A program made the position numbers. From the NCBI GenBank assembly GCA_947594705.1, contig CANQEG010000001.1:1-41143 (forward strand): DNA of 41,143 nt, given 5' to 3'. Every line of letters starts with the position of its first letter. Within the stretch, counting starts at the first letter, position 1. This DNA comes from an uncultured Bacilli bacterium. GTDB taxonomy: Bacteria; Bacillota_I; Bacilli_A; RF39; UBA660. Positions 15,001 through 24,000 of the stretch are shown in pieces.

Positions 15001-18000
15001 TAAATTGAAAATCCCGGGTACGAGGTCTAAACGCTTACGATTTATAATAGAAATAGAGTGGAATTTTGAATTTTAACTCATAGAATAAAATGGACTTTTC
15101 CTGAATTAAAAATGAGTGTATAATGAAGGTAGATTGGGAGGTTTGAAAAATGAATTATATAAAAAAATATAACGAAAAAACTTTTGAAAGCATAAAACAT
15201 ATTAATGAATATGGTAATGAATATTGGTTTGCTCGAGAGTTAATGGTTGCACTTGAATACACAAAATGGAGCAATTTTATAGGCGTTATTCACAAAGCAG
15301 AAAATGCTTGCAAGTTAAGTAATAATAACGTTGATGAGCATTTTTCCGACGTCGGTAAAACGATAAATATGCCTAAAGGTGCTACAAAAACAATTGATGA
15401 TTATGAATTATCAAGATATGCTTGTTATTTGATTGCTCAAAATGGAGATCCTAGAAAAAAAAGCATAGCAATTGCTCAAACCTATTTTGCTATTCAAACA
15501 AGAAAACAGGAAATTTCTGAATTGGAATATAGTCAATTATCTGAAGATGAAAAGAGATTTTTTCAAAGAAAATTAACGAAAAAAGGTAATTATTCATTAA
15601 ATCAAGCTGCTAAAAATGCTGGTGTGAAGAATTTTGACAGATTTCATAATTTTGGGTATAAAGGCTTGTATAATGGTGAAACAGCAGATGATATTGCGAA
15701 AAGAAAAGGACTTAGATATCGAGAAGATATTCTAGATAATATGGGTAGCGAAGAATTGGCTGCGAATTTATTTCGAATTACACAAACAGAGTCAAAACTA
15801 AAAAGAGAAAATATCAAAACCGAAAGTGGTGCAAACAAGGCACATTATATGATTGGTAAAAACATTAGGGAGGTTATTGAAAAAAATGGTGGAACGATGC
15901 CCGAAAATTTACCTACACCTATAAAAAGTCTTAAAGAGTTAGAAAAAGAAAATAAGCTGCTCAAATATTAATAAATGAAACCCTACTGATAGGTTATAAT
16001 GAAACATTAAATTTTAAGAAATAATGATATTTTGGAGCTTTTTTCATATACTTTATTATGAAAAAATATTATGTTTGCTTTTTCTTTTTTTGCTTGTTTT
16101 TTCTTTGTCTTTCTTTTCCGTTTGTTGAAGCTCAAGGACCTTTAAAAGAAAAAAGTTTTGTAATTGATGTGGGTCATGGGGGAGTTGATCCTGGTACGGT
16201 AGTAGGGTCTATTTATGAAAAAGATATTAATTTACGAATTTCTAAATTTTTAAAAAAAGAATTGGAACACTTGGGAGCTTCTGTTTTATTAATTCGAGAA
16301 GGTGATTATGATTTAGCTTCTCCTTTGGCAATGTATCGAAAAAAAAGTGATTTCGATCATCGAATTTCACTTATTAATCATAGTAAAGCAAACTATTTTA
16401 TTTCGATTCATTTAAATTATTTAGAAGATTCTAGTTATGATGGAGCCCAAGTGTTTTATTCGAAAGTTTTAGATGAAAATAAAACTATTGCGGAAAAAGT
16501 GCAAGCGTATTTAAATCAAAAATTACAAACAAAACGTGAAAGTAAGAAGATTTCTTCTTCTATTTATATGTATCCTAAGTTAAAAATTCCAGGGGTTTTA
16601 GTAGAATGTGGGTTTTTATCTAATGCAAAAGAACGGGAAAAATTACAAGATGATGCATACTTATCTTTATTTGCAAAATATTTGGCCGAATCGTTTTTAA
16701 CGATTTAAAATTTATTGAAGAGTTTTTTAAAATATATTATACTTATGGTAAGTTAGGAGTTGATTTTTATGGCTAAATTTGTCGCGACCGATGTAAAAGA
16801 AACAATAAAAGCAACAAAAGAATTTACTGATCGTGAAGAACCAAGAAAAGTTTTTTGGAATAAATATGAAATGTTAAAGAAAAATATACAGGACAATTAC
16901 CCAATTCAAGTGATTTCTTATTATGGGTTTGGAGGAATTGGTAAAAGTTCTTTGTTACATAAATTAAAAGAAGAATTACATGAAAAAGAACCAAATGCTA
17001 AAATGGAATTTTTAGATTTTGAAAAGTTAGTTGAACTTCATAACAATTTAATTGATATTTTAAAAAGTATTAGACAAGATTTGAAAGATCGTTATCAATT
17101 TACGTTTCCTATTTTTGATTTGGTTACTTATGTATATGAAACAAAACTTGGAAAAACAGCTACCAAGCCAGAGTTAAATAGTATTTTTGATGAAAATAAA
17201 GAATTAAATTTTTTAAAAGATGTGATTACGGAAATTCCTTTGATTGGAACAATTTCTAAAGTTATTAGTTATGCGGATCGAGGCAGAAATTTATTAAAAG
17301 AACGATTACAAAATAATTTATTAAAAGAAAGATTAGAAGAATTAGAAAATTCTTCGGTAGAAGAAATAAAAGAGAATTTAGCTTACTATTTTTCTTTAGA
17401 TTTTGCCGAAAATATAAAAAATGAAACGGTTCCTTTTGTATTCTTTATTGATACTTATGAAAAATTAGTGAATGAACTGACACAAGTGGGGGATGTCTTG
17501 AAAAATGATTTATGGCTTCGTGGAGATGATGGACTTATTTTACGAATTCCTAATGTTATTTGGGTCATTGCCGGAAGAGAAAAATTAAAATGGGAAGAGA
17601 TGGATTCTTCTTGGGAAGGAACACTTGAACAACATTTACTTGGAAATTTATCGTTTCAAGATACTTCTCATTTTTTAAAAACAGCTGGAATTGAAAGAGA
17701 AGAACTTATTCATGAACTTTATGATTTAACCCATGGAACACCAATGTATTTAGATATGTGTGTCGATACATTTATAAAATTAAAACAAAAGAATATAGAA
17801 CCTAAAATAGAAGATTTTGGAACGGATACAACGAAGTTAATTAAAAGATTTTTGATGTATATGAATGATACAGAACGGGATTTTTCAACGATGCTTGCTT
17901 TTATTCCTTCATGGACAGATGATACCATTGAAGATATTTCTCGTAAAATGATTGGAAGTTTTTCGTATTCTTTATATGAAAAGGTGAAAAATTTTTCTTT

Positions 18001-21000: not shown

Positions 21001-24000
21001 TCTTTTAAAGAATATTTAAGTGCTTTTCCTAAAGCAGAAAAGAGTCGTTATGAATATTTTTTAGATTATATGCAAAATGGTGGAATGCCTGGGAATATTG
21101 CTATTATTCAAGATAATCCCAATGATTTATATACTTATTTAGATGGTATATTTAGTACTGTAGTTTATAAAGACATCATTATTAGAAATAATATAACTGA
21201 TAAGATGTTATTGGAAAGTATTTTAAAGTATATTTTTGATTGCATAGGGAGTCCTATATCTACTAAGAAAATAAGTGATACTCTTACAAGTAAAGGGTTT
21301 GCAATTAGTAATCATACAGTAGAGAATTATATCTCAGCATTTTTAGAAAGTTTTTTAATATATAAAGCAGAAAGATTTGATGTAAAAGGAAAAAATTTAC
21401 TTGCTAGAGATTATAAATATTATGTTGTTGATTTAGGTTTAAGGAATTATTTATTGGGTAAAAAGGGTGACCAAGATATGGGACATATGCTTGAAAATAT
21501 TGTTTATTTGGAACTACTTAGAAGAGGTTATAAAGTATATGTTGGAAAAGTTATGGATTTAGAAATTGATTTTGTTGCTGAGAATAAAGATGGCTTAAAA
21601 TATTATCAAGTAGCATTGTCAGTTAGAGATGAAAAAGTATTAGAACGAGAATTGAGATCGTTAAAAAAAACAGATGATTATTACCCAAAATATATTATCA
21701 CTTTAGATATGGACTTAGAAGCGGATTATGATGGGATTACAAAAATGAATGTAATTGATTGGTTGTTAGAAGATAAAATGTGAAAATTCATTGACTCGGG
21801 GGGGGGGTATATGTGATAAACTCATTCTAGGAAACTAGGGTGATTTTTTATATGGAATTAAGAAAATTTAAAGAAAAAAATCCTAAAAAAGTAGGAATTA
21901 TTTTATTTACAATCACTTGTATTTTATTAATTAGTGGAGTAATTTTATATAGAACATTTGCTATATTTCAAGTTGATACAACACAGAATGTCATTAATGG
22001 AAGTATTGAAGACCCAGGAGATATTTATTTTGCCTTTTATAAAGATGGCAACATACAAAAAGAAATGCCCAAGAAAAGTGATGGTTATGTTTTAGATGAA
22101 AGTCAAAGTTACTGTGGAGTAACCGGAGCAAAAGATTCAAAAATAACGATAAGTATAACTGATGAAGAAACGATAAAGATAAATGGTGTGACGACATCAA
22201 GAACCAAATGTAATTTATATTTTGTAAAAGGAGTTTATATATTAGGAAAAGGAATCCCTTTTGAAACTGAAAGTGATGGGCTTTATGAAGTAACCCATGA
22301 AAATGTTACAGGAACTATAAATGATACAGGTTTTCAAAAAACAGAGTACCGTTATTCCGGAAGTGACCCAGATAATTATATAACATTTAATAATGAAGAT
22401 TGGCGAATTATTGGCTTAGTAAATGTAATGACAAGTAATAACAATGTGGAACAAAGAGTAAAAATAGTGAAAAATAAAAATATCGGATCTTATAGTTGGG
22501 ATACTTCTCAAAACTCTCAAGGAATAATTACTGGAAAAAATAAATGGAATGAATCTGATATGATGATATTACTAAATGATTACTATTATAATAATAAAAC
22601 GAGTCAGCAATGTTGGCAGTATGAGTCCGGTTTTAAAGTAAAATCCATTTCTTGTTCCTTTGATGGAATTGATAATCATGTAAAAGGTTTAAAAAGTGTA
22701 TGGAGCATCATTGATGAAGATATTATATGGACATTAGGAGAAGCATTTGATACAAATATAACTACACCAAACGCATATCAAAAGGAAAGAATTGTGAGTG
22801 GTGAAGATAATAAATGGCCAAATGAAACATCTAAATCTACTTATCATAGTATAGGTCTTATGTACCCTAGTGATTATGGTTATGCTTATGGAAATCAAAG
22901 TTGTATTGAAAATACCACACTAGGTACAGCAAATAACAGTCAATGTTATGAAACAAATTGGTTTTATGTTGGTGCATTTTCTCATGCATGGCTTTTAACG
23001 TCGTCAAATAAATCGGAAAGTGTAGTACATTTTTTAAATGCAAGTAGTTATCTTAGCGATATGTCGGATGCTTATGGTAGTAATGGCGTTTACCCAGTTC
23101 TTTATCTTAAACCAAATGTAAAAATTATATCTGGTGATGGAAGTAGTAGCAATCCATATCAGCTTGTTCAAGTTCTTAATTTTTAAAATATTTTAATTCT
23201 TTTTTTAATTCCCATGGTAATCCGGTAACATATGAATTATCACCAATAAAACGTAAAACTTCCTCTTTTGTTTTTTCTTTTTTAAAATATAATTCCGTTT
23301 CTAAAATACAGGAAATGGCTTTTTCTTTGGCTTTTTCATATAATTCAAAGAATGAGTCTTGAGATATTTGGGTTTTATCTGTTGGATTCCACCAGAAATT
23401 ATGGTCTTCATTTAAATATTCTAAATTTAATTTTGTAACATGAAAAGATAAGTATTGATATTTTCTTCCTGTTTGAAAAGGAAGACTATCTTTTAGCATA
23501 TAGAGTAATTTTTTACAACCTGTACGATCGGTAACACCATATTTTAAAAGAAAATTACCTGTTCTTACACTTTGTTCATAGATGGTTCCAAGGTTATCTT
23601 TTTGAAATGTTTTTTGAAATGTATAGGTGATACAGTTTTTTAATTCTTCGGAAAAATTAAATTTAGGAAGAAGAGTATCTGCAAGTTTTGCTTTATATAA
23701 AGGTGTAGAATTTCTTTTTTCATATAAATAAGCATCAATATTTACTTCCATTTTTTCATGAAGACCACGATATTTTTTATTGACATTTGAAATTCCAGTG
23801 CAATAAATAATATAAGGATGACAAAAGGAATCTAATAAATAATGACAAAAACTACCATAAAGATAACTTTTTAAATCGATGTTGTTTTCTAAGTGATGGT
23901 TGGTTATATAATCAATGATATTTTCAAAATATAAATTGATTTTTTCGTTTTGGGCACTGTGGCCTAAATTTCTTATTTCTTTACCTGTCCAGGGAGTTAA

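Follow-up and report, generated by a model that had tools for sequence, protein, structure and literature searches.

The stretch of DNA analyzed here, referred to below as the window, comprises the 41,143 nucleotides (nt) of contig CANQEG010000001.1 (assembly GCA_947594705.1) from an uncultured Bacilli bacterium of the lineage UBA660, has a G+C content of about 27%, and carries three plus-strand genes 3' of the amidase gene cwlD, in the region between 16 and 24 kb. The first of these, called gene A in what follows, is the main subject of this text, and encodes a protein which, judged by its motifs and predicted fold, is a divergent STAND NTPase with a long helical tail and without an effector domain. 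The other two are gene B and an open reading frame (ORF) of 448 aa. The features of gene A are as follows.

16769-20431, + strand: gene A, an intact ORF of 1220 aa, putative STAND (NLR-like) NTPase without an effector domain
16823-18088, + strand: NTPase (NOD) module, residues 19-440, with a pre-P-loop motif, Walker A, helical insertion, Walker B, GRE sensor-1, GxP motif and winged helix
16925-16951, + strand: Walker A or P-loop, GFGGIGKSS, residues 53-61, from the 17-sequence alignment A3
17048-17416, + strand: helical insertion peculiar to the family, about 125 residues (94-216) in nine helices, located after beta-2 and before the Walker B strand
17435-17461, + strand: Walker B, FVFFIDTYE, residues 223-231, with D228 invariant and E231 kept in at least 90% of the members
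17564-17593, + strand: sensor-1 strand, VIAGREKLKW, residues 266-275, with G269, R270 and W275 invariant
17732-17755, + strand: GxP motif, HGTPMYLD, residues 322-329, with P325 and D329 invariant
18104-20428, + strand: C-terminal alpha-solenoid, putative sensor, residues 446-1220 (about 775 residues), a degenerate TPR_10/12-like array
20430-20447, + strand: terminator-like hairpin and T-run, directly 3' of the gene A stop codon

Gene A is a real gene and no chance ORF, given that its open frame extends over 3.7 kb in DNA of 27% G+C, that it has hundreds of homologs, and that the ratio of non-synonymous to synonymous substitution rates (dN/dS) in its N-terminal module is 0.04-0.14. Its start codon is an ATG, located 10 nt 3' of an AGGAG.

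The N-terminal module was aligned in 17 sequences of the gene A family (alignment A3), in which the residues F19, R22, G53, G55, G56, G58, K59, D117, D211, D228, G269, R270, W275, P325 and D329 are invariant. The P-loop consensus of this alignment is Y-G-x-G-G-I-G-K59-S/T, and gene A follows the general Walker A form GxxxxGK[ST] with GFGGIGKS at residues 53-60. Similarly, the Walker B form, i.e., four hydrophobic residues and an aspartate with a further acidic residue, is present as FVFFID228-T-Y-E231, in line with the family consensus h-h-h-h-D228-T-Y-E231. A motif of the hhGRExE type on the N-terminal side of the P-loop is reportedly a STAND trait, an observation credited to Leipe et al. in 2004, and it is found in gene A as the variant F19-T-D-R22-E, the position of the Gly being occupied by Asp or Asn in the gene A family. 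The sensor-1 arginine (G269-R270-E), the GxP motif (G323-x-P325...D329, with the consensus G323-x-P325-x-x-L-D329) and the winged-helix histidine are all present, the latter in an MHD-like M421-H422-E423 at the end of a winged-helix hairpin of the form Y-x-h-H422, with the His kept in 13 of the 17 aligned members. The AlphaFold2 model of residues 1-460 has a pLDDT of 80.7 and places helices before a beta-hairpin at residues 412-421 in this region. What precedes the NOD is a tail of only 18 residues, which is charged, poorly conserved, and modeled with low confidence.

The whole gene A protein has no Pfam, NCBIfam or PADLOC match at E<0.01, and its N-terminal 500 residues produce weak P-loop matches in Pfam, to KAP_NTPase, DnaA, nSTAND6 (E 0.04) and NACHT (E 0.16), the best single match being KAP_NTPase (residues 34-232), which scores 18.2-18.4 bits where the cut-off is 20. 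When the 17 members were scanned singly, sub-threshold matches were obtained to NB-ARC in 11 (best E 3e-6), NPHP3_N in seven, AAA_16 in five, and NACHT in three. A search of the PDB with the alignment of full-length homologs (A1) was dominated by TPR matches from distant relatives, and a search with an alignment of the N-terminal part returned weak P-loop matches only, such as TnsC and the NB-ARC protein 9h2l (E 0.006). The structural comparison of the NOD model by Foldseek placed Cdc6/ORC first, followed within the top 50 by the NODs of NRC2, CED-4, ZAR1, Sr35, NLRPs (NLRP9) and Dark. As no curated profile reaches its threshold, the STAND membership of gene A rests on motifs and fold, by which it is filed here as a divergent STAND/NB-ARC-like NTPase.

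The helical insertion that separates beta-2 from the strand of Walker B is conserved as strongly as the remainder of the NOD, with a motif F-x-F-P-x-F-D-L at residues 111-118, which contains the invariant D117, and with D211 likewise invariant. Within the insertion lies an "IPxxG" hairpin, FLKDVITEIPLIGTISKVI (residues 148-166), which is the most hydrophobic stretch of the NOD module. Hydropathy was calculated on the Kyte-Doolittle scale with a 19-residue window in 194 family members, and the median for this hairpin was 1.37, with values of at least 1.6 in 54 of them.

The C-terminal part of the protein is predicted to be all alpha-helical, the AlphaFold2 model of residues 441-1220 having a pLDDT of 79.3 and a pTM of 0.75. 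Given that [YF]G-x-x-[DH]-x-x-[TA] motifs recur at residues 585, 804, 844 and 1128, and that the more distant relatives of gene A have bona fide TPR_10/TPR_12 arrays, this region is interpreted as a degenerate TPR-like array. Foldseek matched it to generic HEAT/ARM/TPR-type solenoids only (SF3B1, karyopherins, CRM1, beta-catenin and designed repeat proteins), with a best E of 2.6e-4. A word-filtered homolog search with this region by itself recovered the query and nothing else, given that relatives at about 30% identity are lost at the word filter. Searches of Pfam, NCBIfam, PADLOC and PDB sequences, together with Foldseek, found no enzymatic, DNA-binding (helix-turn-helix, HTH) or adaptor domain in gene A.

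Some candidates for a further domain or partner were considered and rejected. A C2H2 zinc finger (Y-E-C-K-Y-C...H, residues 1107-1130, Pfam E 0.17) was discarded, given that its Cys and His residues are unconserved and that the equivalent segment of the relative P0005 consists of ordinary helices. A read-through or frameshift fusion to the upstream ORF was also set aside: cwlD is in frame, but the stops TAA at 16706 and TAG at 16754 intervene, and the upstream genes of the relatives are unrelated. Finally, the N-terminal tail of gene A is charged, poorly conserved, not rich in G/N/Q, and has no small partner, which speaks against an N-terminal tag of the amyloid/BASS type.

An earlier note on this DNA had located the gene and its motifs (Walker A at residues 53-61, Walker B at 223-231, GxP at 322-329) at the positions that were recovered here, and had called the product a STAND/NB-ARC-like NTPase, a description with which the motif alignment, the sub-threshold Pfam matches and the NLR NODs found by Foldseek agree. 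Its long helical-repeat tail reappears in the all-helical model of about 775 residues, and the absence of an effector and of an HTH, which it had also remarked upon, was upheld in the profile, PDB and fold searches. The note placed the start of the NTPase about 45 aa from the N-terminus; the actual start is earlier, with F-T-D-R-E conserved at residues 19-23. The suggestion of a new architecture was overstated, given that STAND proteins with a NOD followed by TPR-like repeats are already known, and what is particular is a large family which is NTPase-first and has no conserved partner.

A word-filtered homolog search with gene A returned 83 matches. When 1.84 billion representatives were searched exhaustively with phmmer, 1792 clusters were recovered at E<=1e-3, of which 1202 remained at E<=1e-10 and 542 at E<=1e-30. 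The gene A family, which is unnamed, is a large one of approximately 1200 clusters at 50% identity. Relatives are found in 234 of 185,579 species genomes (about 0.1%), mostly those of Clostridia from the gut and rumen and of Bacilli with small genomes, while Synergistes and Fibrobacter account for a few. Among the top 150 of the 1792 clusters, the NTPase match starts at about target residue 1-15 in nearly all of the full-length proteins, and the few later starts include truncated fragments; in the species genomes, none of the proteins could be extended at the N-terminus by more than 81 aa, and the usual extension is 0 (73 of the 78 loci, those with a callable ORF). The family as a whole is NTPase-first, without an N-terminal effector. 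Some relatives have repeat matches of the RNPP or TPR_MalT type. Gene A itself is absent from all 24 genomes of the same genus and from all 16 more distant ones that were compared, and is an accessory gene, not a core one, the latter being an outcome under which the earlier note would have dropped its proposal. Relatives of gene A were absent from both IMG/VR and INPHARED (GenBank phage genomes), and an origin of the gene in a phage or prophage was rejected on this ground.

The two parts of the protein have evolved at very different rates. In 25 full-length relatives, the identity to gene A is 50-75% in the NOD and 24-30% in the tail, and the tails of the relatives are likewise only 24-30% identical to each other in most pairs, close pairs excepted (e.g., 42% between P0005 and P0008). 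Syntenic orthologs differ by 8% in the NOD versus 42% in the tail. The pairwise dN/dS (Nei-Gojobori) is 0.22-0.47 in the tail at a similar dS, against the low values given above for the NOD, and at the non-synonymous sites the tail evolves 5-7 times faster than the NTPase. The tails of gene A and P0005 are nonetheless collinear (26% identity, E 7e-49), and the divergence is therefore attributable to fast change and not to the replacement of domains. An NLR-type sensor engaged in an arms race would be expected to show this contrast. In one syntenic pair of relatives (L005 8001-11681 and L008 8001-11558), the dS is 0.39 in the NOD versus 1.11 in the tail, a mismatch that suggests a recombinational exchange of the sensor part.

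The genomic contexts of the close relatives differ from one another, and include LonC...TsaD/E, QueH-RhuM-Abi_2-A-PolA, SH3/cadherin-A-FtsY, and FtsK_gamma...ComEA, while the relatives with TPR-type tails are found in an integrative mobilizable element, beside a POR operon and ParA, in an island with type I restriction-modification (R-M), DndB and Schlafen-like genes, and beside a GntR gene. Overall, the relatives occupy many different chromosomal sites and one mobilizable element. The clustering of the neighboring ORFs of 78 loci detected no family shared beyond the local synteny groups, and the same-strand neighbors located less than 60 nt away (n=34) are housekeeping genes (SRP54/FtsY, SDR, YitT, deformylase, YchF and glycosidases) and one Abi_2. 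Some relatives have defense genes as neighbors, either Abi_2 or a combination of type I R-M, DndB, Schlafen-like and Abi_2 genes.

In a Priestia megaterium plasmid (NZ_CP026738.1, 5655-9988; locus L120), a HEPN gene lies 33 nt upstream of a gene whose product is a TPR protein of 1027 aa, the N-terminal NTPase of which shares 24% identity with gene A, with a restriction endonuclease and a DUF87 ATPase nearby, and this HEPN and STAND-TPR pair is a candidate two-gene module among the distant relatives. In the mobilizable element (L034, 5679-7258), genes of 117 aa and 409 aa are tightly coupled downstream of the TPR-type relative, and in the R-M/DndB/Schlafen-like island (L038, 8351-10078) the downstream gene, of 575 aa, overlaps it. 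The coupled genes at both loci have no family match and could be lineage-specific partners.

In the window, gene A is part of a larger insertion, which is delimited by core genes and contains the two other genes mentioned above.

16709-23175, strand not assigned: lineage-specific insertion of 6467 bp with genes A and B as well as the 448-aa gene, from tblastn synteny
16058-16708, + strand: cwlD (Amidase_3), core gene, left border of the insertion
23176-24138, - strand: Zn-dependent phospholipase C (PLC) gene, core gene, right border of the insertion, convergent with cwlD
20464-20488 and 20504-20528, + strand: direct repeat of 25 nt, which is also an imperfect palindrome, upstream of gene B
20527-20555, + strand: gene B promoter, TTGACT-17-TATACT, in the spacer between genes A and B
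20575-21783, + strand: gene B, 402 aa from an ATG, AAA_14 and DUF4143 domains, PADLOC PDC-S01 candidate single-gene defense system
21840-23186, + strand: third inserted gene, 448 aa, product anchored in the membrane at its N-terminus, with an extracellular domain and no family match

The insertion is recognized because the 3' ends of cwlD and PLC abut within 0-35 nt in 14 of 16 same-genus genomes, in which the gene order is L13-S9-cwlD-PLC(-)-Abi_2-HtrA-(small ORF)-amidase(-)-Mbeg1. The borders of the insertion were searched for an integrase, a tRNA, a flanking direct repeat and a target duplication as signatures of a mobile element, none of which was found. The earlier note had thus correctly seen an insertion after cwlD, and it had also described the locus as the start of a variable region with an Abi_2 gene; this gene is, however, conserved at the site (72-83% identity), where an Abi_2-HtrA pair stands beside PLC in every same-genus genome that covers it. 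In the window (24307-26351), Abi_2 (PADLOC AbiD, E 2e-61) overlaps the start of the HtrA-like protease gene, and the core-like conservation of an Abi_2 gene in a genus is unusual for an abortive-infection family.

The STAND unit does not include the 448-aa gene. Homologs of its product, with 33-35% identity, are found at other positions in three relatives (G013, G020 and G002), where gene A is absent, and the one in G020 lies downstream of a gene B ortholog. A G10 tract (21798-21807) is located in the promoter region of this gene. A second insertion, on the other side of cwlD, is represented by a gene with a BRO-N domain (15150-15971) between rpsI and cwlD, which in the relatives are spaced by 80-150 nt. 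This gene is flanked by a 67-nt duplication of the 5' region of cwlD (14753-14819 and 16085-16151, 81% identical).

Gene B matches AAA_14 (E 7e-36) and DUF4143 (E 1e-19) in Pfam, and the PADLOC profile PDLC04787 along residues 1-400 of its 402 (E 3.2e-155), which places it in PDC-S01, with which it agrees in its domains, in being a single gene, and in its multiple copies, with no distinguishing feature. PDC-S01 is a single-gene candidate, proposed through guilt-by-embedding, which is among the most abundant prokaryotic candidates and has not been validated yet (PMC12988326), and its published description is that of an ATPase with a fused PD-(D/E)xK domain (PMC12988326; PMC13356809). Orthologs of gene B (82-87% identity) occur at other loci without gene A; compared with the window, these loci become similar in DNA from 20475-20504 onward, just past the terminator of gene A. 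As the similarity begins inside the 25-nt repeat, this repeat belongs to the PDC-S01 cassette, and it may represent an operator. The promoter and the repeat element of gene B, as well as its AAA and DUF4143 domains, had all been seen by the earlier note. Of 30 genomes of the genus, 25 have members of the gene B family, with 1-13 copies each, and there are four copies in the 1.19-Mb genome to which the window belongs. Strong expansions of the PDC-S01 family are seen in genomes of 1-1.5 Mb (G000, contigs C13, C18 and C67; G001), and one relative has up to 13 matches, some of which have internal stop codons.

Gene A is interpreted here as a stand-alone NLR-like switch, that is, a solo conflict sensor, although the odds that its role is an immune one are put at roughly even, and the conclusions on its structure and architecture are far more secure than that. 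By analogy with the Avs, NLR and MalT proteins, the tail would bind a foreign protein, from either a phage or a mobile element, which would release the NOD from an ADP-locked state and permit nucleotide exchange and oligomerization. Given that no effector is either fused or linked, the output would then have to lie in the oligomer itself, most likely in the conserved NOD, including its 125-residue insertion, and might consist of target trapping, the engagement of a host factor, or the action of the hydrophobic hairpin on the membrane. The possible outputs are ranked, in descending order, as (a) intrinsic to the oligomer and its insertion, (b) dependent on an unlinked host factor, and (c) a regulatory role outside immunity.

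A number of observations weigh against this interpretation. Gene A itself falls below every Pfam gathering threshold and so matches no curated STAND profile, and the Foldseek matches of the NOD have a probability of 1.0 and E values of 1e-6 to 1e-4, but TM-scores of just 0.26-0.35. The elevated dN/dS of the tail can also reflect relaxed constraint, and the hairpin of gene A has a hydropathy of just 1.17, under the usual transmembrane threshold. None of the Avs or bNACHT models of PADLOC-DB v2.0.0 matches gene A (0 families at E<0.01). In the surroundings of the relatives, PADLOC identified approximately six of 144 immediate neighbors at E<1e-8 (about 55 non-redundant loci), namely, AbiD twice, PDC-S27, HEC-05, PDC-S05 and a methyltransferase. 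Lee et al. 2026 grouped 359,879 STAND representatives into 589 clades, and classed 198 of these as defense-associated on the basis of either fused effectors or an enrichment of the context over a background of 0.0153 at P<=1e-4 (PMC13581612). By definition, the gene A family lacks the fused effector, and with the 0.0153 null its context would miss the P<=1e-4 level, being marginal at best in a small sample.

Other explanations have to be considered for a STAND gene without an effector. The most immediate, which the earlier note had raised, is a two-gene system, with the STAND protein as the sensor and the adjacent AAA_14/DUF4143 protein (an ATPase with a PD-(D/E)xK-like domain) as its separate effector. 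Genes A and B do adjoin on the same strand within one insertion, and an AAA_14/DUF4143 gene is found 6 kb upstream, on the other strand, in one group of relatives from the metagenome contexts, and within 6 kb of the gene A relative at one of the 78 loci in the species-representative genomes. At 4-13 copies per 1.2 Mb, however, proximity within a few kb is expected by chance in several per cent of the loci. A terminator follows gene A, gene B has a promoter of its own, and the orthologs of the latter, alike from just past that terminator, are found elsewhere without gene A; the B family is in most genomes of the genus and gene A in none of the 24 (see above), and PDC-S01 is catalogued as an abundant single-gene candidate (PMC12988326). 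Neither conserved co-occurrence nor co-transcription, which together would define a two-gene system, was found, and the earlier note, which was ready to abandon the pairing if the two genes did not travel together, is answered by the finding that they do not. The two-gene system is thus close to refuted, gene B being a separate single-gene module that is next to gene A by happenstance, and an annotation should keep gene A apart from both the PDC-S01 gene and the Abi_2 gene, which is conserved in the genus, and not present them as one "system". An effector may also be encoded elsewhere, in which case the activated oligomer would recruit either a conserved host protein, such as a nuclease, protease or translation factor, or the product of a gene located elsewhere, and the effector would therefore never appear as a neighbor. 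The lack of both a cis effector and a conserved neighbor is in keeping with this, the plasmid relative of P. megaterium implies that relatives can use a separately encoded effector, and the bacterial STAND protein SeAvs7 incorporates EF-Tu (PMC13581612). On the other hand, SeAvs7 retains its own nuclease, the neighbor analyses brought up no candidate partner, and a mobile single gene would need a partner that is nearly universal in its recipients, which makes an unlinked effector an unlikely solution.

The protein may, alternatively, have no immune role, and be a regulatory or scaffolding switch, similar to MalT or NPHP3 and without an HTH, which senses a cellular ligand or peptide and acts by protein-protein contacts. 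Some 391 of the 589 STAND clades of Lee et al. 2026, i.e., around two thirds, are not classed as defense-associated (PMC13581612), the neighbors of the family members are mostly housekeeping genes, some members have the RNPP-type or TPR_MalT-type repeats, and relatives are missing from the phage genome collections. Against this stand the patchy presence of the gene (0 of 24 genomes in the genus, about 0.1% of the species genomes), its insertion at numerous unrelated positions where no operon partner is conserved, and a tail saturated at 24-30% identity versus 50-77% in the NOD, which would be unusual in the receptor of a conserved cellular ligand. A role outside immunity is given a low probability. 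A further form of the immune reading would have the effector built into the NTPase, with the hairpin (h-h-h-x-x-I-P-x-x-G-h-h) bared on ligand-induced oligomerization, leading to membrane damage or the capture of a host factor in a one-gene abortive-infection sensor, and this form is considered improbable.

The bacterial NLR-like sensors studied so far kill by means of a fused enzyme, and the gene A family has neither a fused nor a linked effector. If the family is involved in defense, it would demonstrate that a STAND oligomer can act either alone or through host factors, and would add a common and currently unannotated class of genes to the defense catalogues of gut microbes. If it is not, it marks a large non-immune STAND clade of the gut and rumen Bacillota.

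Among the systems known so far, the KAP NTPases resemble gene A in having a large insertion between Walker A and B, at the position where many KAP proteins bear transmembrane helices inserted in the P-loop domain, which probably explains the near-threshold KAP match, and a KAP protein of a giant virus is among the BFVD fold matches of gene A. This family also includes PifA, of the phage exclusion system of the F plasmid, an effector-less NTPase that aborts infection. Gene A differs in scoring below the PF07693 threshold and in a hairpin that is not predicted to be transmembrane, and its GxP and MHD-like motifs and TPR tail are those of STAND proteins proper. The pairs of the Bell/BASS type, in which an NB-ARC-TPR protein is accompanied by a small effector, similarly have a NOD-TPR protein with no fused effector. 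These amyloid-signaling pairs are said to share a short N-terminal motif with an adjacent small effector (reportedly the work of Dyrka et al. in 2020), whereas the gene upstream of gene A is the core amidase cwlD, split off by two stops, and the 18-residue N-terminal tail is not G/N/Q-rich.

The NODs of the NB-ARC/AP-ATPase type, such as those of Apaf-1, CED-4 and the plant NLRs, have the same order of motifs, and are among the best Foldseek matches of gene A, which differs in falling below the Pfam gathering score, in the additional helical insertion of approximately 80-125 residues between beta-2 and Walker B, in a Walker B (D-T-Y-E) nearer to that of NACHT, and in having no CARD, CC or TIR domain. 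Finally, the Avs/AVAST proteins are antiviral STAND NTPases, reportedly characterized by Gao et al. in 2020 and 2022. Avs proteins have an N-terminal effector (nuclease, protease, SIR2, TIR or others), the deletion of which abolishes their function (PMC13581612), and gene A departs from them in an NTPase that starts at residue 19, in the family-wide lack of an effector, in having no PADLOC Avs match, and in a weak defense context. The two are nevertheless alike in having a STAND NTPase followed by a long TPR-like helical sensor, encoded by a single, horizontally mobile gene, in which the NOD is conserved and the sensor diversified.

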